A stretch of DNA of 64,000 bases from Sarea resinae (GCA_026026165.1 JAPEUD010000002.1:310001-374000), one strand, 5' to 3'. Positions 20,527 through 50,593 are shown, counted from the stretch's first letter. A program made the numbers and translations. Notes: a model not told the origin generated them from the letters alone.

Positions 20527-21631
20527 ATGGCTCAAGATCCTCGGGCATTGTTACAGAAGGTTGGCTCTACCCCTCTACCCCTCCACCCCACCATCTTGGA
20601 TGAAGAGCCCGCGAAAGCTCATGCTCAGTAGGCCGACAAAGCTTTGTCCGGCGCAGGAAGTGGGTTTAGTCTGTTCGGTGGTCGAACGGAGAAGTATGAA
20701 GCTGCTGCAGATCTCTATACCCAAGCGGCCAACGCCTTTCGACTGCAGAAGCAAGGTATGCTGGAGATCCGCGCTCGAGACCTTCGGTGGAAATAACCTC
20801 GATTCTGATGCGTAATAGGCAAGGAAGCTGGTGTGGCATTTGAGCGTGCGGCCAGCGTCCAGACCAAGAATCTGAACGAACCTGACGATGCAGCAAATAG
20901 CCTGACGGAAGCTTTCAAGGCTTATCGAAAGACGGATCCAGAGGATGCAGCAAGAGTACTTGACCAGGCCATCAACCATTACACCATGAAGGGAAACTTC
21001 AGGAGGGCAGCCACCCACAAGCAAAATCTGGCAGAGGTGTTCGAAGTCGAGATTGGAGATCAGAAAAGAGCAATAGAGGCATACGACACGGCTGCGGGAT
21101 GGTTCGAGAGCGACAACGCCGAAGCGTAGGTGCCACCAGTACACTCAAGTACAATGACTGACATCAGCAGCCTTGCCAACAAGGCATACCTGAAAGTCGC
21201 CGATTTGGCAGCTCTGGAAGGTGACTACTACAAGTCCATCGAGAACTACGAGAAAGTGGCGAAATCGTCCATTGGAAACAATCTCATGAAATGGTCGGTT
21301 AAGGATTATTTCCTCAAGGCTGGAATATGCCATCTTGCTACTAATGTAAGTCCCTGCGTTTGATCCACAGTAAAGTTTCTGACAGTGGCAGGACTTGGTT
21401 GCCGCGAACCGAGCACTCGAGAGCTATCGTGACTTGGATCCGACATTCCCATCGACAAGGGAACATCAGCTTCTGGTCGATCTCACCGAGTCGGTCGAAC
21501 AGGGCGATCAAGAGGCGTTTGCCGACAAACTGTTCCAGTATGACCAGCTGAGCAAATTAGATAAGTGGAAGACTACTCTCCTTCTGAGGGTAAAGAACAG
21601 CATTGAGGAGAAGGGCGAGGACTTTTCTTGA
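20527..21631 (+). CDS. SEC17: Alpha-SNAP vesicle fusion protein, 5 exons
   Basis: MAQDPRALLQK|ADKA...EKYEAAADLYTQAANAF, GNFRRAATHKQNLAEVFE, KWSVKDYFLKAGIC, KLDKWKTTLLLRVK. Four GT-AG introns. Confidence 0.96.
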
Positions 21632-23724
21632 TTGATTAATTCGGCGTTGTTTTCCCATAGTAATGAGCAATTACCATTGATATACTTCAAAGAAAGAGCC
21701 GCACATGCTTGGTGCCACATCGACTATGAGGGTTTTTGGAATAAGAAATCGGCGGTCCAAGGAAAGCGATTGCAAGCGCGAGGCCGATACGAGTGATCGT
21801 GGCCTATCAGACCTCTGTTCTCTGAATCAATGCCATTAATCCTGCGGCGATCTAGTGCCTTCTGGAAGCGTTCAATTAAGTCAAGTTGGCTTTGATCAGC
21901 GCCAAGGTCTCTGATGATGTTACGGAGTACAGCCACGGGTGCCAGCAGGGACTTATCCGTCGCATCGGTTCCAAGAGGCCAAGGCCCGCCGATCCACATG
22001 GCCAACAGCACACATGGCGGCATCTCGAGTCGTCATTAGCTAGACAGCTATGGCCAAGAGCAGGTACCTCACTTGGCGCTACATCTGTCGGGTAGAGAGG
22101 CTGGTCAGGCTGATACCGTGTCTGGCACCTTCAATTTACCGACACGGCTCTTGTTCGCAGCGCGAGTGGAATGAGTGAGCTGGAGAGAATAGAGCGAGAG
22201 AGACAGAGAGGGCATGAGTTCTTTTCTCTGGCCACCATGGACATCTTGGTGATGGCCCCTGCCCACGCGTTCGCACCACCATCAAGTCGAGCTTCATGCA
22301 ATGCACATGCATTCATGGCTGCGATTATCTCATTCTGGGTAGCACGTGGCTGGGGGCAAGAATACAACCCGTTCCAAATTGGCGGATGCGACTAGAGAAT
22401 TGAGGCCCCGGGTGTTCTCCAAAGGTCTGGCTGGCTTTCTGTAACGTAAGTCCCGAACAAACACCGCAGGCGTGGGGGCAGAGGCGAAGTCAAGTAATCC
22501 GTCCATCCACTGCTGCTAGGGTACCTTACTCAGAGCACTGGTACTGATGGTTTCCAGTCTTCGATGCTGACAGTCAGAAAGGCTCCGAATTGGCTTTCCT
22601 TGACCACGTTGAACCCTTACCACACATGCGAGCACGTTGCTCGCTTTGCACCAAGACGAAAGCGTGCGGGGGGACGTCTGGTGGATTATTAGGGAGCAAT
22701 ACGAACAATCACCTACCTAGCCCGGTCCACGCCACCACTCACTTACTTGCCCTTCTCATCATACTACCACGTACCGTGCATTCCGTCCAGAACAATCTCC
22801 GCGCCACCGCCCATGTACAGGACCGTCCAAGGTTGTACCTTCGTGCGCTCATGCCTGATCCATTGACGCCTTTGACGCCTTTGGTACGAAGAGAGCGCAT
22901 GCGAGGTAGGATGTAGGTCACCACGGAATCCCGGCGGTTTCATAAATTACCACGTCTACCGTCGTAGTCGGAGTAGCCTCGTCGAAGACGACGGTCGACT
23001 AATCTCTTGCTGATCGATCGGGCATATCGAGCACGGACAGGACATGAAGAATAGGTAGGTGGCTCGGTGATGGTGTAGAAATTCACCCCCTCGACCCCTC
23101 TCGTCCTCCCTTGCGGAGCCTCGAGCGGGCGACGATCCTCGTGCTGATTGATTCTTGCGTGCGTTGCTCTGGGATTTGTTCTGGGATTAGTCGTAGTCCG
23201 TAGTCCGTAGTTTCTTGGATCTCTCGATTGTTGATAGTCGCACTGTCTAATTTAGTCGGGCCGGGGTCTTCAAGGCTTCCCGGGCCTGTCAGCGCACTAC
23301 CGCAGTAGAGCAGGACGCGGCACAACCGTCAAGTCAGCCAATGCGCGCCGAAACATGTCGGCTGGCTGCTGGCTCATGGCGAACCGTTCATGCACGTTTC
23401 TCCAACCTCGCCCATGATTGGCAACTTGGCCACTCCATCGCTCTCGCGCTGCAGTGCCCGACAGAGCGCTCGCAGCGACACATGCAGTGGCTCTGCTCCT
23501 CGAGAGGCCACGGTCGTCGACCGTGGGCGTAAATAATATAATGGCGAAAAGGGCAATAAATCATGATGATGATGATGCTAGTGGGGAAGAGAGCTGATAT
23601 CGTTATTGTTATCGTCGTCATTCTGCACATGCCATCCAACGTTGTCGCAGTCGTCTTTGCTCGATAGTCGTTCTCATTCATTCTTGATGGGCCTTCCCTT
23701 CGAGTCTCGCCCAAACACCAAACT

Positions 23725-28597: not shown

Positions 28598-29037
28598 TAG
28601 CTGGGCTGATATGACATGATAGCGTAACGTATCTATTAATATACCTGGTCTGGAATGGCGTTTCCGGACGATTTGCTGGACAGGACGGCCACTCCTCGGT
28701 CTCAGAATTTCTACATGTTCCTTTAAAAAGGACTTCATATCCATTTGCAAGCCTCAAGTAGAGTAGACCTAGAGCCACAATACTGCTGGGCTCAGTGTCT
28801 GAGCTTAATCTACGATAGGATCGTGCCATACGATGATGGTGGTGGAGCTTTACTCCTGAATATCACCTTGCCTCATTGGGTGTAGTCAATAGGGGATCTC
28901 GCGCGTTACCCGGCTAGCGATTTGAGGTACATGTTTGATGTATCTCGATAAGTTGGTCATTGGCGACGCGCGACAGCTGAAATTTGAGCTCGATCGTGAA
29001 CCTTCAGCATCAAGCTCTATCGAGCCATTTGGACTGG

Positions 29038-31878
29038 ATGAATGTCGTAGCATGGCACGCTCTGCGAGTGCTGCCTAGGGCCTCTCCACGAGCTACGTGC
29101 CGTCTGATCGCGGGCCGCCGATACCCTCTCCCGATACGCTCCTTTCACCGGTCCGCCATCGCATATCGAGACCCTCGAGATCCTGATTCAAGGAGTCCAG
29201 CCCCAAGGCAAGATGATGACAGCATAGCACCGCCTGAACCGACAGCGGCAGAGGTTACAGAGCTGGATGACCAGCCGGAGACAGAGGTCCAGCGAGAGAA
29301 GAACAACTACGGCTCGGCAGCTCGGCGATCGATGAGGAACAAGAAGCCAAAGGAGATTCCGCCGATCATATTCCCGGACTGGTTCCTCGCAAAGAATGTG
29401 AAATCCCGCGACTCTTTGTCTCAGAAGGGGACCTCTCTAGGCATATATGAGGAGAACTCGGCGGATGACAGCGCGGTCGACCCTTTCAATGGGAAGTCCC
29501 AGAAGCAGACCGAATTTCGTTATCTTCTGCCTAAAAACCTTTGGCTCGAGATCCTAGCCACAACGAAAGCCAGCCTTGACCTTCCTCCATCTCGTTACGC
29601 CGACGACTTCCTTGCTGAGAAGCACAATCTTCTGCTCCAATGCCCCCACGACGGCGGCACCTTCTTCCTCGACGCAGTCACTGAATCAGTAGCGAGATCT
29701 GTTGGAGCAGACTTGGTCCGAATAGATGCTCAAGATATCGCCGAGATCGGTGGCGATTATATTGGGGAACGGCCCGGAGCAGAGTCGATAAGATCGCTCG
29801 GATATGACGCCTATCGATCACGGCAAGATTTCAGAGAGACGGAGGATATTGAAGAGGATGATGAAGAGTTTTCTTTGGAGGACGAAGATGACGAGCCTAC
29901 GTCTCGGTCACCAGGCAGACCAGCCATTTCAAAGTTCAGCGCGATACCGATCGGGACGATCACTGGCTCCCTTGAAGATTTCCTGAAATCTGCCAACAAG
30001 CCCGGAAGGGGTTCAGGGGATTGGAAGCCACAGAAGACAAGGTATAGGGGCTTGGCTTCGGGCGATTGGGATGACATGAAGCTTTCAGCTCTCATCGAGA
30101 CATGGGTGGATGCATGCCAGCTGAAGCGTACTCCGGGATCTGTCGAGGTCCACTCCGTACTGGGAGCGGATCCATCTAAAAAGCTCATCATTGCGGTCCG
30201 AGATTTCAAAGAGGTTTTTGATACTTCACAGGGAGCTATCATCTTGTCCAGGCTTGTGGACATTGTACAAAGACGAAGAAAGGAGGGCCAAAGCGTCATA
30301 ATCATCGGATCAATCTCTTCTGAGGCTCTTATGCCATCCTTCTCCAAGTCGGGAATCAAAAGCCTCCAGGGCGAGTATGAGGACGGAGTGGGAAGGACGA
30401 TAGTGGTGCCTCCTGGTAAATATGCCTCGAACATTGACAAATATAATGAGGACGATAAGCAACGGTTAAGACTCATTAACACTCGACACTTGAGGGATAT
30501 GCTACGTCGACTAGGCTATGATGTGGAACGCCACAACAGTGCTATCGATCAGCTCGATCTACGACTGGATACTTCACAGACATTTGCTTCAGGGCTGGAA
30601 GAATACGTTTGGCCATTCAATCACGTTCACCGAGTGGCTGCCACGGCTCTAGGATTGCTTAAACCCGACGAGGCCTTGACGCAGGCGACCCTACAGGAAG
30701 CGCTTCTATTACTTGACAGCAGTGACCAGGAAAAATTCGAGATGGCAGCCGAGGAGAGGGAGCGCATGAAGGAGCCAGAAGAAAAGCCGACGACAGGCAA
30801 GGATACGGAGGAGAAGATGAAGAAACTGCGAAAGTCCTGCAACAAGCACGAGAAGAAGCTACTTGGCGGTGTTGTCAACCCTGGTAAGTCTCATTCATCT
30901 GAGCACATGTTCCCAATACTGACTCGCGTAGAACATCTTCACACTACCTTTGCAGACGTGCAGACTTCGCCCCAGACTGTCGAGGCTCTTCGAACTCTGA
31001 CGTCACTATCCTTGGTTCGCCCAGAAGCCTTCACATATGGTGTCTTGTCGACTGACAAGATTCCCGGCCTTCTCTTGTATGGACCACCTGGGACTGGTAA
31101 GACCCTGTTGGCCAAGGCTGTCGCCAAGGAAAGCGGGGCCACGGTCCTGGAAGTCAGTGGATCCGAGGTCTACGACATGTACGTTGGAGAGGGCGAGAAG
31201 AACGTGAAAGCAATCTTTACGCTGGCGAAGAAGCTTAGCCCTTGCGTCGTCTTCATCGATGAAGCGGATGCCATCTTCGGGTCCCGGGGCGGCAACGCCA
31301 GTCGAACCAGCCATCGCGAACTCATCAATCAATTCTTGCGTGAATGGGACGGCATGAATGATCTCTCTGCCTTCATCATGGTAGCGACGAATCGACCATT
31401 CGACCTAGATGATGCCGTGCTCCGACGTCTACCTCGTCGTCTCCTCATCGACCTTCCCGTCGAAAAGGACCGCGAAGCTATCCTCAAGATCCATCTTCGC
31501 GACGAGTCTCTCGATTCCTCTGTGATACTCTCAGAGCTTGCTGCACAGACGCCACTCTACTCTGGATCCGATCTCAAGAACCTCAGCGTCGCGGCCGCTC
31601 TCGCCTGCGTGCGGGAAGAGAACGACGTGGCCGCGCAACACCAAGGCTCCGAGGCGTACCAATACCCGGAGAAGCGAGTTCTGGCGAAACGGCATTTCGA
31701 GCAGGCCATGGATGAGATCAGCGCCAGTATCAGCGAAGACATGAGTTCTCTGTCTGCGATCAAGAAGTTTGATGAGAAGTACGGGGATCGTCGGGGCCGG
31801 CGGAAGAAGAGTGCGGCGTGGGGATTTGCGACCGCTCTGGAGTCGGAGAAGACGGAGACGGGGAGAGTGAGGAACTAG
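29038..31878 (+). CDS. Large mitochondrial AAA ATPase (Msp1/ATAD1/spastin-related). In-frame intron ~30884-30931
   Basis: Arg-rich presequence, degenerate first AAA domain, GLLLYGPPGTGKT, VFIDEAD, VATNRPFDLDDAVLRRLPRR, YSGSDLKNL. Confidence 0.9.
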   Translation: MNVVAWHALRVLPRASPRATCRLIAGRRYPLPIRSFHRSAIAYRDPRDPDSRSPAPRQDDDSIAPPEPTAAEVTELDDQPETEVQREKNNYGSAARRSMRNKKPKEIPPIIFPDWFLAKNVKSRDSLSQKGTSLGIYEENSADDSAVDPFNGKSQKQTEFRYLLPKNLWLEILATTKASLDLPPSRYADDFLAEKHNLLLQCPHDGGTFFLDAVTESVARSVGADLVRIDAQDIAEIGGDYIGERPGAESIRSLGYDAYRSRQDFRETEDIEEDDEEFSLEDEDDEPTSRSPGRPAISKFSAIPIGTITGSLEDFLKSANKPGRGSGDWKPQKTRYRGLASGDWDDMKLSALIETWVDACQLKRTPGSVEVHSVLGADPSKKLIIAVRDFKEVFDTSQGAIILSRLVDIVQRRRKEGQSVIIIGSISSEALMPSFSKSGIKSLQGEYEDGVGRTIVVPPGKYASNIDKYNEDDKQRLRLINTRHLRDMLRRLGYDVERHNSAIDQLDLRLDTSQTFASGLEEYVWPFNHVHRVAATALGLLKPDEALTQATLQEALLLLDSSDQEKFEMAAEERERMKEPEEKPTTGKDTEEKMKKLRKSCNKHEKKLLGGVVNPGKSHSSEHMFPILTRVEHLHTTFADVQTSPQTVEALRTLTSLSLVRPEAFTYGVLSTDKIPGLLLYGPPGTGKTLLAKAVAKESGATVLEVSGSEVYDMYVGEGEKNVKAIFTLAKKLSPCVVFIDEADAIFGSRGGNASRTSHRELINQFLREWDGMNDLSAFIMVATNRPFDLDDAVLRRLPRRLLIDLPVEKDREAILKIHLRDESLDSSVILSELAAQTPLYSGSDLKNLSVAAALACVREENDVAAQHQGSEAYQYPEKRVLAKRHFEQAMDEISASISEDMSSLSAIKKFDEKYGDRRGRRKKSAAWGFATALESEKTETGRVRN

Positions 31879-40860: not shown

Positions 40861-41959
40861 GCTGGCTGTGATGTATCCTGCTCATGTGCAGGACTTGTGC
40901 CCGTTTTGCGGTCACAGTGCTCGTACCCACGGCCCAGCTTGGACGTACGTACCTATACCTTTTGTTGGCACGCTCGGTCACACAAACGAGTGGACAGAGG
41001 GTTGCACTTACAGAGCCGTCCCAGGGGACGCGCCACTATTGGGGGGCGTGACCTGCCCGGTGGAAGCAGAGGGAGCGGAAGGAGCGGCGCCAAACGGTGA
41101 AGAGTACGAGCTGACAGTCCCGGACGCGTTCAATCTGTAAACAGTGTTAGCCTGTATGTATTACACGGGAGAAAGAGAACACTTATAGGAGAGTACCAAC
41201 CCAAAGGATGATCCATTATAGGGGGCTGTGACCTGGCCGAAGTGCGCAAAGAGCGCGACAGACAACGGCGTGGCGGACGAGGGACCTGGGCAACTGGAAT
41301 ACAGAAAGGCGGCGGACCCACCAAGAGCGCGGACACACCAAGGGCGCGGACACACCACGGGCAGCGTAGGGCTGCATGATCTCCGCTATTCTTGACATGA
41401 CCTAGCCTAGCGAGCGACCTCGTCGACCGACTGAGAGCGCGAGGAACGAAAGCTGCTCCCGCAGTTAGCCTGATTCTACGACCAGGGGGAACCTAACACC
41501 GCGCGCGTGTATCTGCCGATCTCATTAGAGACTGGTTTCGCTCTTGTAATACTCGCCTCTTCCTTTCCACGTCTTGATAACAGTGTTGCTACTGCTTAGT
41601 CTTGTCACGGCCCCTTTTTCTTCTGGTCACCTCTCTAGCTACTGCATAATATATATGTTAGAGGATTGGCGCTCTAGTTATTCAATCTCTCTCTTTTCGA
41701 GGTTTAATAGTACGCCTGCGAATTAAAGAGCCCCTTGATATTTGGGAACGGTGCGTATAGGGGCTGGAACAGCCTCAATTTTCTCAAGTCCATATATCTT
41801 GGTTCATTGGCAGTCAATCTTGACGAGCTTAGCTTTGTGTTTTAGAAGGTTGTACACATCAGCGCTGTGGTTCCGAAAAGAGCAGGGCATGCCCAATTGG
41901 CTATCAGAGGAGATATCAAGTTGAGGTTTGGTCTCAAGGACGTGCAAGGAAACCTGGTT

Positions 41960-42060
41960 ACCCTCTAGATGAGAAATCCGATGCTCAGCTAGGTCGGTGA
42001 CCGGCATTTCACCGATATCAGTGAAGAATAAATCGTCCATTCGTTGCACCAACTCAGCCA
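41960..42060 (-). mobile_element. Fragment resembling the Ty3/Gypsy pol region just upstream of reverse transcriptase
   Basis: DLFFTDIGEMPVTDLAEHRI resembles the DLF....LP.TDL.EH.I segment. No RT core follows. Confidence 0.45.
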
Positions 42061-43184
42061 TTTGTGATTGGGCCTTACAGCGCTGCATCTTTTTCTTCAA
42101 ACTACCAGCAGCACTTTGTAGAGTTGCAGTTGGTGAGAGTCCCTAGTTGATGACAGTATCTGCGATTAAGGCCCTCGAAACACTCTCTCGGGCTGGCCAA
42201 TAAGCTCTTCTGGTGTAATCTCAGCCCAGAGAGTAGCCATGTTAGTCTGCGCAACAAGATCGATGTCTCGAGTCTGACGGTCTGCACCGCCGCAGATCAT
42301 ACCTTAATCCGATCAGGTCTCGGGTTGTATGGAAGATGCAAATCACTCATTCATTTCATGATCCGTCTAGGACGTCATACAAAGACAAAGACCAGTCGAT
42401 TGAATTCGTTTAGAGGAGCTATCGAAACCTCTTCGATCCGAACAAGGGAAGAGCCAGATGTCGCTTTCTAATTGGCAGTTGTGGTCGCTGAACCTTTTGA
42501 TATCGTATTGTGATTTCGGTCTAAAAAGAACTAAATTGTCTGTAGAAACGCCCTGGGCACCTTTCCATGGATATTCGGATGACCGGAAGGGGAACTCGGC
42601 GGCGGTGTCAAATCCCTATAGCAAGCTGAGAACTAAGTCCACATCCAGGATTCAGGCAACTCTAACATTTCATGATCGGCCTGTATTCTCAGCGGAAACG
42701 GATAAACTACTCGTCGCAGCTTTGTAGGGTAAGTAGTAGCACCATGTGGCAACCCAGGGAGGCTGACTTGTAACCTGTACTTAGGGCAAGGCTGCTCAGC
42801 TATTTTGACATCCAGGTGCCCGCTGACTACTAGGGCCAGGTGATGAATCCTCTGGCTTAGCGGAATTAAAGCTTTACTGCAGGTCAGCTTTATCCTTGAA
42901 CTTAGATAGATAGCTTAGGGCCTCGATTATCTCTAGAGAGCGTACTATTGTGCTCGAAGAAGTTCTGAGAGTTGCTTGTAGCGTCCTAAGGCGTGAGCTG
43001 GCGGCGCTAAGAGAGGACCGGAGATCTCTCCCTGAAACGAGAAGAAAGCAACGAGACAGAGAAGAGCAGAATAGGCTGGCAATCAGGTATCTGTTGTAAG
43101 CTAGGCTCTTTGCCAAATAAGGTTATGTAGCCAGTCAAAACCTACTCTACGTGCTTCAGCCATTCCGGCCCCGTCCAAGTGCAA

Positions 43185-43526: not shown

Positions 43527-44334
43527 CTATACGAGTTGATTAACTATTTTGTTTCATATGCGGTCGACCTTGCCTTGATTTTCAAAGATATCAGCAGAAG
43601 AGAGAACCCGCGGCGGCAATATGCCCGAAGCCATATTTCTGGATCTGGCTGCGTCTCGCAGCTCGGACGCCACCTCTACACTGATGCATTGGCACCAGTA
43701 GGCCAGCATCACCCAGCTTCGTATGGAGCCTGCCGTTTGGAGAGTCTAAACAAGGGACCGAGGGGATATACTTCCGGAGTCGTGCCGGTGGATGTGCCAC
43801 CATTGTGGGCTGTGGCCTGTCCGGTGGAAGCGACGGGAGCGTTGCCGAACGGAGTAGCTAAACCCAACCATATCCATTGCTATGCGAAAGATAAGAAGAG
43901 ACAAGGAACAAAACCACAATCTCACACTGTAAAGAAATTCCCCGATCCATCACAGAAGGCCTAGCGGAATGGGGGTGGTGGGCAAAAGCGTGGCAGACGA
44001 GGGATCTGGGCAACTGCGGCCCACGAGGACGAAGCACCAGATTTCGATGGCCAAGGACCCGAGCAGGAACGCCATAAACTGCACGAAGGGCCAATCGACA
44101 ATCTTCAAGAGGGAGGAGTCCCTATGCCCCTGAGCGTTCCCCCAAACTACGTTAGCTTTCCCGACCCCTAATCTTGGTTCAGCGTTGCTGAGTATAAACT
44201 TGGCCAGCAGAAAGAGCCGTGCCATTGGAATAGGAGAGCTCGGGGAGGGGGGTGGAGGGCGGGAGCCTGCTGTTGCTGTTGCGGTTGCGGTTGAGGCTGT
44301 GGATGGGGAGGTCTGGGTGGTTGCCGATCTAAGT

Positions 44335-45400
44335 TCATCGCTGGTTCGATAACTGATCTCTGCACTGATGCCTGCTTGAGTCGCTTGTGATGAAGGTTGA
44401 AGGTTGCATTTCATCTGCATCTTTTCCTCGCCACTTTCTTAGTCTTAGTATGGCCTGGGTTTTTACCGCCCTCATACTCTCTTCGAACGGTTGATTCAGA
44501 GCAACAGCCTTCATGGCATTACTCTCTTCGTATCGTCTCGAAATTTCTTCCATAGTAACAGCAACACTTTGTAGAGTTGCAGTTGTACTTCTTTATCATA
44601 TTTTAGCATTATTAGCCTTTTCCTTGCCTGGCCGGTTATCTATAAGGGAAGCGTCTGTAGGTGGATGTAAATCTGCGATCTTCAGCCTCTAGAATCTTTC
44701 TAATAGCTAGATAGCAATATCTCTAAAGCCATAGTCTCTTGACATCTCCTGGGTGCTAAGTTTCTCCACATAGTCTCGCGTGTGCTCGCACTGAATCTTA
44801 GTGGAACGCATCTTGTCCCGAGTCGTTAGTATCAGACAAGGGTAGATTCTCAACTGCCTCTAGAGAATCATCCTTTTAAGGTCCTAGCTCAGCGATAGGC
44901 ACGACATACTTCTCTGGGATATATATTATATACTCTACCAGAGATGGTTCTAGCTCATCGATCGACACCCATCATAGAGACCTTGACACGCTCAGTCTCC
45001 ATGGATGTTATCCTTGCCTGCTCGAAGGCATATGGTTGAATCCACTCAGGCGGGTGCAGGATCACTTCCTCTCTAAAGAATGTCATCTTTCTTATTTTTC
45101 CACGACAGCTTCTTTAGAGAGTTCACGGCCGTGGAGCTGCTGGCTAGTAAAAACAAATCTCTTGCTCTTATACAAGCTATATTTATCCTCTGCTTATCTG
45201 CTATAAATCCTAGACGCAGATTAACAACTAACTTAAATATCACTACTAGGGCTTCATAGCCTTAAGAGGAATTGACTGTATTTCCACGTTCACCAAAGGT
45301 GCTTCAAATCCGCGTAATAAGATAGTAGAGTCGTCAGTGCCTTTGATGATGTCAAATATGTCGTAAATTTCGTGAAACCCCGTGTGGGGTCGCCCTCTGT
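44335..45400 (-). pseudogene. RIP-damaged reading frame of unknown family
   Basis: Protein-like runs (GRPHTGFHEIYDIFDIIKGTDD, FREEVILHPPEWIQPYAFEQARI, TATLQSVAVTMEEISRRYEE) separated by TAG/TAA stops. Confidence 0.4.
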
Positions 45401-45799
45401 TAGGCGGGTCCCTCAGGTAGGCTGCTCGAACGGCGCTGACAGGTAGGCGCCTTGGGCGCGGCTAGTAGCCGGCTATGGGCTAGGGATAGGCAGGATGGGT
45501 ATGGCTTGGTAGGCAGCAATCGTATATAGTTTCTATGCTTCAATTACTACTATCCTCGTAGAGTTGAATGCTGAGGTTCTATCCTCTAGCATTCAGGCCC
45601 TGCTATGTGGGAATCGCTTCGATGCCTGGCAACCCCTATTACCCCGCTCACGTGCCTCTGATCTGATTCCATGCGATTCTATGGCTTTCCCTGCTGCGGC
45701 GGTGCAGCAGCCACATGTGGCGGTCTGAGCCGCGCAGCGCCCCTGACACCCTCTGACCCTGATCGGCGTCCGTGCTGTTATTCTCTGCCAACTAACTGT

Positions 45800-47790: not shown

Positions 47791-48338
47791 GGGCTTTTGA
47801 GGCTCCTCAGCCATCGGCCGGCTAGCAATCTCGAATATTTCGGCTGAGTGGAAGGCCAAGGCGAGCAGTCCTCATGCGATTGCTTGACCTAACCAGCGTG
47901 TGCGACACCAAGGGAATCCTCAGTTTGCTGAAAGCTTTTCTCATGATAGGGACTGTGACATTATGTATTTCGACCCTAGCGTTAGCAAGGTGGAAATGAT
48001 AATGCGCCACCAGCTCTCATCGTGCGTGAAGTAGGCAGATGACCACGCGCTGTTTCCCTGGGACTACCTAGGGTAGAGAGAACTCTAGGGCGTGATTCTA
48101 GGCGGCTCTGTAGGTGGCCCTTTCCAGCCCGTCCTCCTCTTGACAATCCGTCTTGAAGCTGTGACTTTGCTGTACTCTTCCTTTGATCGAGGCAGGAGTT
48201 TTCTGCTATCTGAATGGAAATAGATGCCTTACGAGCAAAAACACCCTTTGCAAAACGGCCCTTAATGGCCTGCGGCCCACGAAGACGAAGCACCAGATTT
48301 CGATGGCCAATGACCCGAGCAGGAACGAATTCACCCTT

Positions 48339-48644
48339 TTATCTATATGTCGAAATAGGTTCTGGTAGGATTCTGCTCACGAGTGCATCCGACAGGGGCC
48401 CAAGGCCTGTAAGTGCCACGTTTGCCAGCAATCTACAGAGGAGAGTGCCGTGAGCATTCGGCTGGCCAGAGAGGCTGCTTGGCCCAAGAAGGAGGTCGCG
48501 GTGAGCAATGGCAAGGTCATTCCAGGTTCTGAATTCTGGAATCTCGAAGGTGCTGTGATCCTTTTCAATTTTCACGAGCCAGGGAAAATATATGCGCAAA
48601 GCCGTACTCCCTGATATTGCCAGAGTTTTGTAACTCAAACGCAA
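48339..48644 (-). pseudogene. Copy 1 of the unknown FPWLVKIEKDH domain
   Basis: 47/72 aa identical to the ORF at 49286-49567 by manual alignment. Confidence 0.65.
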
Positions 48645-49285
48645 TATTGGCGTTGAGGCCTTGGCACCAATGGCCGAGGGTGACCCAGCTTTTTATGAAG
48701 CATGTGGCCCCTTCCAGGCCCCGGACAAGGAGGACTAGACTCGACCCCTGTGGGGCCTCCGTGAGGTAGCGGATCAGGTTGCGGTATGGGCCCCCCCCCC
48801 CCCCCCCCCCCCCCGGCGAACTTTCGTAGGGTCGGGCGCCGGAGCGTGAGGAATAGTTGGTAAAGTGAGACGCACACTAGGTGGTTGACGTCTTACTCTG
48901 ATTCCGAGTTTGGCTGCATCAGCCGGCGTCCCTATTTTCGAGCCAACATCCTGAATTTTGCTGGTCTGGTTACAACGTTTCAGCTCTCTCTTTGATATTT
49001 CAGCCGCCTACGCGTTTATCTTATTGTGCATACCGAGCAAAAGTCGTACGCAGTTCTTGTTGTCCTCGTCGTCAAGCAATACCGTCACCTATACTATGTT
49101 TAGTCCTCTTCCACGTTCAACTATTATCTGTAAGCTGCATCCTAATCAGAGTGCTCTAGGTGTAGCCCAGGCAAGTAGTGGAAGTACGCTCTTGTGCCTA
49201 GTCGCTGTAATAAAGCCAAATTCCTAGACACGGAAGCCTTCTCGGAGTACTACTTCTGTGTCCGGATCACTACTGCTGGATCGTC

Positions 49286-49567
49286 CTATCTGCGTCGGCC
49301 CACCAATGCATCTGACAGTGCACCCAGTCCTGTCACAGCGACGCTTGCCAGAAATTTATATGGAATAGCTCCGTGCGTATTCGGGTGTCCTGATGGACTA
49401 TTCAGAGCTGGCACCAAATATCGATGCGCGATAGCGATCTCGTTCCAAGTCCCTGACTCGGGTATCTCGAGGGTGTTATGGTCCTTCTCGATCTTGACCA
49501 GCCATGGGAAAATGACACGCCGGACTTTAGTCGGATCCGGTGCTGGACCGTGTGGAATAGTCGGCAT
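49286..49567 (-). CDS. Copy 2 of the unknown FPWLVKIEKDH domain (ATG start; early TAG may be a RIP-type stop)
   Basis: Paralogous to 48339-48644 with mostly synonymous differences. Confidence 0.55.
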   Translation of the reverse strand: MPTIPHGPAPDPTKVRRVIFPWLVKIEKDHNTLEIPESGTWNEIAIAHRYLVPALNSPSGHPNTHGAIPYKFLASVAVTGLGALSDALVGRRR

Positions 49568-50593
49568 GGTAATACGCGCGCCGTATTAGGGGCAGGGTTG
49601 TCTCTTAATTTGAAGATTTAGCTTTGCTGCGTCCGCTGGAGTCTAGAGTTTGGCGTCAACGTCTTACCTTATGTAGCACATAGCTGTGTAGGAACCACTA
49701 GATCCTCAACCAAAGTTTGGTCCCTCTACCTGTAGTCCCTTTAACCCTTCCTGTATGCTTTAGTCGACTTCTTTTGGTGTTTCTTGGTAATATCCCTGTA
49801 TATAACAGTCTGTTTATTGCTTAAGATTAGAATGATTTTCTTTAGACTTGTTATTATATAGCTCCTTATAATCTGTCTTCTCTGTAATATTAAGTCTTTT
49901 GCCTCTCTTATACTCTTAGTCTTAGGCTTATCTTTATCCTTAGGTAATCTTGTTATCCTCTTCTGCTGTATTAGCAGCTAGTGTATTCTTAATTCTAAGA
50001 CAGAAGTCTAGACTTAAGCAGTCTCTCCTAGTTAGTATATAGTATTAGCTTTGCTTTTCTTTTTTCTTAAGCCAGGTGTGAGCCAGATATAAGCTAGTTA
50101 GGAGCTGGCTTAATTTAAGAGCCCTAGGGTGCATCACGTATTCGATATATAGTGACTGATATCTGATATCTGCATGACCAATGGCGTTCCTCGTGCGTCA
50201 GGCATCAGTAGTATGCCATGGTATAAGCTGTATAGATAGATCCGACCATCGTTCTAGTAAAATGAAACAGATTGAAAAGCAATAAAGATGCTTACAAAAC
50301 GAGAGGTGGTGCTCGAGAGACAGGAAGTGCAGGGAAGGGCTTTATCAATGACGTGACTCGACGTCTGGTTGCGAGTGAATGAGGAGCACATTGCCGGTGG
50401 GGAAGCCAATAGCTTATGGCCGTGAATGCTAGGGAAGTGAATGCGGCAACCAGGAAGCCAAGTGTGTCAGCAGCTCAATCAATCCAAAAATGCTGGCAAA
50501 TAATAGAAGAGGAAGCAAATAGATAATTGTCTATGTTCTATCAATGTGTTTTTTGCATCTACCCTCCATATGGTACCTAACTGGCCCACATAC

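Follow-up and report, generated by a model that had tools for sequence, protein, structure and literature searches.

Two short, similar open reading frames on the minus strand of a stretch of Sarea resinae DNA (64,000 nucleotides, hereafter the window) were found to be the remains of a much longer gene. Together with a third, more decayed piece, they are dead and truncated remnants of copies that diverged long ago, probably of a gene belonging to selfish elements; its intact relatives elsewhere are located inside fungal LTR retrotransposons and encode a predicted oxygenase. The original prediction, which saw an old, selected and unrecognised domain tandemly duplicated as an N-terminal module of accessory or selfish-element proteins, stood in part: the old selected family and the selfish-element guess fit our results, while the N-terminal module, the unrelated sequence downstream of it and a simple tandem duplication had to be given up.

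Relic copies in the window

The two frames, ORF A and ORF B (Table 1), align without gaps over 75 residues with 48 identities and 58 positives (BLASTP, E 5e-34), so the gapless similarity first counted as 47 of 72 residues is real. At the nucleotide level, the two copies are only 64% identical. Within the shared peptide FPWLVKIEKDH, whose codons had been quoted correctly, 9 of 11 codons differ, in the third base only, and over the 75 codons the differences at positions 1, 2 and 3 numbered 17, 13 and 50 (16, 12 and 51 in a BLASTP-like register), which departs significantly from an even spread (chi-square p = 2.6e-8). Nei-Gojobori estimates gave a pN of 0.19 against a saturated pS of 0.85, and third positions were saturated in every pairwise comparison among copies A, B and C. 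RIP was rejected as the source of the third-position bias because transitions made up only 21 of 51 third-position differences between A and B (~40%); the signal is therefore one of saturation under purifying selection rather than of RIP-type mutation, and points to an old, selected protein family instead of a recent DNA duplicate, as had been proposed.

Table 1. Open reading frames, relic copies and associated features, in window coordinates
Feature	Position	Strand	Remarks
ORF A	48339-48692	minus	
ORF B	49286-49585	minus	
Copy A, upstream part	48813..49145	minus	profile positions ~590-689
~216-nt insertion	48597..48812	minus	separates VRR from IYFPW within copy A
Copy A, downstream part	48288..48596	minus	profile positions ~689-830; HMM E 9e-24
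Copy B, relic	49172..49690	minus	profile positions ~635-800 of 867; HMM (70 full-length relatives) E 1e-45
AT-rich RIP-like block	49650..50000		truncates copy B at its 5' side
Copy C, third relic, more decayed	42534..42818	minus	profile positions ~654-744
58-nt piece	44014..44071	minus	97% identical to 48270-48327, copy A tail (self-blastn)

Copy A as a whole covers about 48288-49145 in a single frame, shared by both of its halves, with seven in-frame stops, and corresponds to profile positions ~590-830. Its upstream part, matched by residues 611-722 of the relative P0004 (tblastn, 49145-48813) and by two HMM pieces (49088-49011 and 49007-48777), runs from a degenerate HxD region through ...LLDDEDNKNC... 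to PTIPHAPAPDPTKVRR, and in-frame stops start at 49148, 49091 and 49010. The ~216-nt insertion that follows opens with a 24-nt G run (48791-48814, minus strand), holds three in-frame stops and lies at a site that is uninterrupted in copy B and all relatives; the family alignment resumes exactly on its far side, where residues 722-812 of P0004 match 48596-48288 (tblastn). An intron was rejected as the origin of the insertion, since no GT...AG was found at its ends. The downstream part consists of an ORF (48342-48692), a stop and then further family-like sequence (VPARVIGHRNLVL...), and the supposedly unrelated downstream sequence thus proves homologous to the family as well when translation is continued past the stops. 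Copy A departs from the family at two invariant columns, P763L and F777L (P0004 numbering).

Copy B is matched by residues 620-795 of another relative, P0005, at 49642-49175 (tblastn, E 4e-30). Its open core (49289-49585) carries the distal His (PHG), Arg-Arg, FPW, AHR, PSG and SDALV, and all invariant family columns within its span are retained. Five in-frame stops start at 49666, 49645, 49588, 49288 and 49252; the family consensus has W at the stop after VGRRR, a TGG-to-TAG type change, and several stops in copies A and B coincide, by eye against the family consensus, with a W or Q of the relatives. Beyond about 49690, on the 5' side of copy B, neither tblastn nor HMM nor in-frame translation detected any similarity to the family. 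The bin at 49501-50000 showed a TpA/ApT of 1.47, a (CpA+TpG)/(ApC+GpT) of 0.84 and a composite index of +0.63, against whole-window averages of 0.68 and 1.23 for the two ratios. Copies A and B cover different stretches of the parent protein (~590-830 vs ~635-800) and their third positions are saturated, which does not describe a simple tandem duplication.

Copy C was identified by residues 701-789 of a third relative, P0009, which match 42812-42546 (tblastn, E 2e-12), and by HMM pieces of E 4e-13 and 3e-7. It has one in-frame stop and has lost the invariant columns H753 (Y) and W727 (F). The 58-nt piece is the sole recent DNA-level copy in the region. Besides, three collinear weak matches (75-93% identical) between 40984-42132 and 43748-44585 suggest a putative old segmental duplication of ~1.1 kb, of which one copy adjoins copy C and the other contains the 58-nt piece of copy A.

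The HMM built from 70 full-length relatives matched the window in three places only, at profile positions ~599-765, and the N-terminal part of the family was found nowhere in the window. Across the surrounding island (~39.5-50.5 kb), which shows RIP-like patches that are strongest directly upstream of copy B, none of 49 ORFs was recognisable by Pfam except the edge of a dehydrogenase gene. Elsewhere in the window, the ORF of an AAA-ATPase (28981-31875) shares 98% identity with a protein that one source attributes to a Sarea resinae MAG; the named relative that ranks after it comes from Xylona heveae (56%).

The paired frames might also stem from recent duplication of DNA, from chance resemblance or from an artefact of assembly. 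The contigs of one public run do break at the G run within copy A (48782-48824), so the join across 48791-48814 is not independently confirmed. However, one contig of that run, which may be the source of the window itself, bridges the B/A junction (48825-49650), and the family alignment runs on exactly from one half of copy A to the other despite the insertion. The low nucleotide identity with saturated third positions refutes a recent duplication and the protein E value a chance match, and the chance that any of the three holds is practically negligible. The public-run contigs covered the region at an even depth of ~210-450 per bin without differences, contig depth not being equivalent to copy number. 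Summed contig depth doubles (709) over 43908-44208, loose contig ends occur at 44142 and 44228, and one contig skips 259 nt (45434-45694).

A family of long fungal proteins with a predicted oxygenase fold

A phmmer search with copy B among 1.84 billion representatives returned 399 proteins at E <= 1e-3. The best relative, P0004 (949 aa; E 1.7e-27, 59% identity), aligns residues 1-93 of the query with its residues 706-798, and a search of longer proteins by word index gave two matches, the best 56% identical. The parent family comprises ~820-1000-aa proteins of Pezizomycotina, in which the window unit lies at residues ~700-800; this position near the C-terminus of the long relatives means that the ~70-aa unit is not N-terminal. 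Hosts named include Xylona, Coccidioides, Rhinocladiella, Penicillium, Aspergillus, Geoglossum and lichen fungi. Among the 120 relatives listed, one JGI entry was labelled phytanoyl-CoA dioxygenase, and other labels were "hypothetical", "uncharacterized" or "unnamed protein product". As had been supposed, the window peptides are recognised by no curated family, and Pfam gave no match to them at E <= 10. None of 15 relatives scanned reached a Pfam cut-off; PhyH (PF05721) appeared in four of them at 18-19.4 bits, below the 22-bit gathering cut-off, and Tet_JBP in none. A sequence profile of 63 relatives retrieved nothing meaningful from the PDB (best E 0.05, a designed helical protein). Among full-length relatives, pS was saturated (0.69-0.85) in 11 of 11 pairs, and therefore only pN < pS can be stated for them.

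Structure was more informative. The AlphaFold model of P0004 (mean pLDDT 78.8) is composed of a helical domain (25-255), a disordered linker (256-365) and a confident C-terminal domain (~366-870), most 10-residue blocks at 371-860 averaging > 90. Foldseek found 139 PDB matches to this model at E <= 1e-3; among the rows listed, all with an activity in the title were 2OG/Fe(II) or PhyH-family oxygenases, and TET, JBP or AlkB entries were not among the rows shown. An ESM Atlas feature search likewise indicated PhyH. The model thereby shows the parent C-terminal domain as a predicted PhyH-like Fe(II)/2-oxoglutarate oxygenase with a double-stranded beta-helix fold, as in the solved examples GIG2/DUF1479 (6akz), GriE (5ncj), EctD (4mhr), SnoN (5erl) and YbiU (4rgk), which matched at E 3e-6 to 1e-4 with probability 1.00. 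Compared with these solved enzymes, the family protein has three to four times their length and adds the helical N-terminal domain of ~230 aa and the disordered linker of ~110 aa. It also differs from PhyH members in falling under the Pfam cut-off, in having no PDB relative by sequence profile and in the location of its gene in transposons.

The residues expected of such an enzyme are conserved. In the 63-sequence alignment, H711, G712, R721, W727, H753 and P763-S764-G765 are invariant, and H610 and D612 are near-invariant (at least 90%), so that the HxD...H iron triad is present as H610, D612 and H711. R721 and R722, the latter at least 90% conserved, follow H711 by 10-11 residues as in PhyH-like oxygenases; this spacing after the distal His is that of human PHYH (H264, R275), and the pair presumably binds 2-oxoglutarate, as in PHYH structures. 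We infer that the parent protein is an iron and 2-oxoglutarate-dependent hydroxylase or a related oxidase.

What survives in the window is the end of this domain, made up of the strand with the distal His, the Arg pair, the final strands of the core (E711-713, E721-724, E727-731) and the C-terminal helices that follow. The HxD is out of their reach: copy B starts past its position, in copy A it is degenerate and in copy C it is missing. All three copies hold in-frame stops and, the HxD being degenerate or absent, none of them can function as an enzyme. This bears on the idea that ORF B, and perhaps ORF A, is a small working gene for a stand-alone domain protein of ~90-110 aa under selection. 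ORF B is open for 99 codons, starts near an ATG and keeps every invariant residue of its span, its terminal branch in the tree below is short (0.084), and many short predicted proteins of this kind (74-215 aa) are in the database. However, the apparent start Met is an internal residue of the motif ITMPHLPHG, shared by four of the six relatives read (P0004, P0005, L009 and L005; P0007 has I and P0009 has S), and family similarity runs through the stops on either side of the frame. Oxygenase activity would be impossible with the HxD absent from B and degenerate in A, copy A is further broken by its stop-bearing insertion and the loss of two invariant residues, and the short database proteins may be gene calls on fragments or contig ends. 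We thus regard small working genes as very improbable.

Mobile elements that carry the intact gene

A scan of metagenome contigs yielded 409 stretches encoding relatives, from which 80 loci were kept. ORF clustering showed that many of the long loci have a big same-strand ORF immediately upstream of the family gene. In locus L049, this ORF encodes a Gag-Pol of 2168 aa, in which Asp protease, RVT_1, RNase H, integrase zinc-binding and chromo domains were recognised. In 16 of 30 loci with 5 kb or more of upstream sequence, a gag-pol in the orientation of the family gene ends no more than 5 kb upstream of it; near-duplicates are counted separately here (L022, L023 and L030 form one near-identical set, L008 and L009 another). 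In 13 of 20 pol-adjacent loci, gag-pol and the family gene are enclosed by direct repeats (127-357 nt, 84-100% identity) that lie ~10.0-10.6 kb from each other. The gene thus sits between pol and the 3' LTR of ~10.3-10.6-kb Ty3/gypsy chromoviruses, in the order LTR, gag-pol, family gene (ORF3), LTR; the contig of L049 shows this layout in circularly permuted form. In L009, the termini are TG...CA, a purine tract precedes the 3' LTR, CTAC stands at both flanks and the LTRs are 99.6% identical, and such oxygenase-carrying retrotransposons are apparently active in fungi. The LTR-flanked loci and L049 come from contigs with six different record prefixes, and the LTR-borne copies retain FRHIDVN, PHG and RR.

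The identities of pol and ORF3 co-vary across 12 elements (Mantel r 0.98, with none of 2000 permutations as high), a correlation dominated by one close group versus the rest; in the deep lineages pol is 37-51% and ORF3 38-48% identical. Even so, this co-divergence argues for a long association and against recent capture.

The family gene is not always borne by retroelements, since 14 of the 30 loci examined for an upstream gag-pol showed none. At other loci free of gag-pol, the neighbours include Helitron, pogo, Plavaka, DDE_3, DUF6589 or OrsD-helicase ORFs. In one contig (L013:5408-11814), an intact family gene, an rva_4 integrase-like ORF and two further ORFs that Pfam does not match lie between inverted repeats of 72 nt, which are 92% identical and bordered on either side by GAAGA; the arrangement looks like a putative TIR DNA transposon bearing the same oxygenase gene.

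Several other arrangements were observed. Inverted repeats of 290 nt (92% identical) at L022:1468-12474 enclose two family genes and a pol fragment, and a third family copy lies on the opposite strand at 20628-21842 of that contig. An ORF of ~1280 aa stands upstream of the family gene at L005:1325-5161 and L012:3281-7144, on the same strand, and also at L024:18841-19737, on the opposite strand; it has no Pfam match, and the L005 copy (1279 aa) had no usable ESM Atlas match. Large DEAD/Helicase_C ORFs adjoin the family gene at L057:12514-16908, L001:4884-6917 and L004:6704-8648, the first of them additionally carrying an OrsD domain.

Oxygenases have been described as passengers of transposons before. 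First, an extra ORF in a lineage of orchid Ty3/gypsy elements, plant elements of 25 kb and the Tat/Ogre kind, is an AlkB-like m6A RNA demethylase with demonstrated activity (PMC9289625). The likeness lies in an added 2OG/Fe(II) oxygenase ORF whose cofactor-binding residues are kept through rounds of replication; the fungal elements differ from the orchid case in being chromoviruses of ~10.3-10.6 kb with a predicted PhyH-type domain. Second, TET/JBP dioxygenases are carried by fungal DNA transposons (Kyakuja-Dileera-Zisupton and others), and that study states that it found no retrotransposon with such an enzyme (PMC12730594). The present family resembles them as a 2OG/Fe(II) oxygenase passenger in several kinds of fungal transposons that is presumed to serve the element and not its host, and one TIR-bounded element (L013) holds it as well; it differs from TET/JBP in lacking a Tet_JBP Pfam match (15 relatives) and in matching the PhyH-type fold. 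A possible counterpart is the "additional ORF with unknown function" drawn in some fungal chromodomain Gypsy elements of up to > 13 kb, in a survey whose hosts included Coccidioides, from which the present family also has a member (Novikova et al., 2010; PMC2864245). Searches of the open full-text literature, with Repbase and subscription journals outside their scope, turned up no paper on PhyH-like ORFs of LTR retrotransposons in fungi.

Origin of the relics and what they indicate

In a tree of 60 rows and 118 columns, in which only four confirmed-LTR rows passed the coverage filter, copies A, B and C formed one clade (SH-aLRT 98), nested in a larger clade that also holds LTR-borne copies. 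Terminal branches lengthen from copy B to copy A (0.47) and copy C (0.89). Taken with the third-position saturation, these branches indicate that the copies diverged long ago under selection and died later, B most recently. As ORF3 has diverged in step with pol, we attribute the codon-position signal to purifying selection that acted on element lineages while they were active, before each copy died, and not on the window fragments.

A decayed local cluster, in which non-mobile full-length paralogues of a host gene, once under selection, had been reduced in place to C-terminal stumps, would likewise leave three co-oriented relics within 7 kb that cover similar stretches and are most closely related to one another. 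In keeping with such a host cluster, neither an LTR nor a gag-pol remnant could be made out in the window: a full gag-pol tblastn gave nothing better than E 0.045, Pfam detected no TE-like ORF among the 49 island ORFs, and tblastx of the window against the 80 loci returned almost only family pieces, with five short isolated matches elsewhere (24-32 bits). Neither these searches nor a self-comparison of the window revealed LTR, gag or pol relics beside the copies, although old ones could be beyond detection. The loci without gag-pol fit a host cluster too, as does one relative (L071), a fragment beside housekeeping and NLR genes. However, wherever its surroundings could be read, the gene mostly lay within or next to mobile elements, with 13 loci flanked by LTRs, one bounded by TIRs, and Helitron, pogo and Plavaka transposase ORFs among the neighbours of relatives; the island has RIP-like patches, as expected for repeats; and a resident transposon family also yields multi-copy families confined to one host lineage. 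The best relative being only 59% identical, the source lineage of the window copies is unseen, and the word-index search gives weak evidence that the record contains no close intact relative. Weighing the RIP-like patches against the missing element relics and close relative, we consider a host cluster unlikely, if far from negligible, and a mobile origin probable.

If the window copies are of mobile origin, the following course may be proposed. An intact oxygenase gene of ~820-1000 codons, carried as the third ORF of Ty3/gypsy chromoviruses, would be maintained by purifying selection within active element lineages until each copy died; the window copies would have arrived as parts of mobile elements and then have been trimmed by deletions and RIP-like decay. 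For the enzyme, our guess is hydroxylation of a macromolecule or metabolite that may aid replication of the element or its escape from silencing.

The fragments themselves are ordinary dead relics without function of their own, and their value is that of a pointer to a widespread and mostly "hypothetical" family that Pfam does not claim in the members scanned. For annotation, the family explains why ascomycete genomes hold a class of short "orphan" ORFs that lie in repeat-rich islands and yet are well conserved. Its long retention inside the element suggests a role in the element's own success. A further possibility, doubtful at present and put forward tentatively, is that the third-gene oxygenase is catalytically competent and an integral, anciently retained part of a Pezizomycotina Ty3/gypsy chromovirus lineage, and is borne on other transposon types as well; it might act on chromatin, nucleic acid or element proteins, promoting retrotransposition or blunting genome defence, and its carriers would then be the first dioxygenase-bearing fungal retrotransposons. 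A transposon-borne family of this kind is a directly testable enzyme that deserves follow-up. Transposon-borne 2OG oxygenases are already known in the form of TET/JBP in fungal DNA transposons and of AlkB-like proteins in one orchid Ty3/gypsy lineage, and a different oxygenase class on fungal chromoviruses would broaden the question of how elements manipulate their hosts.
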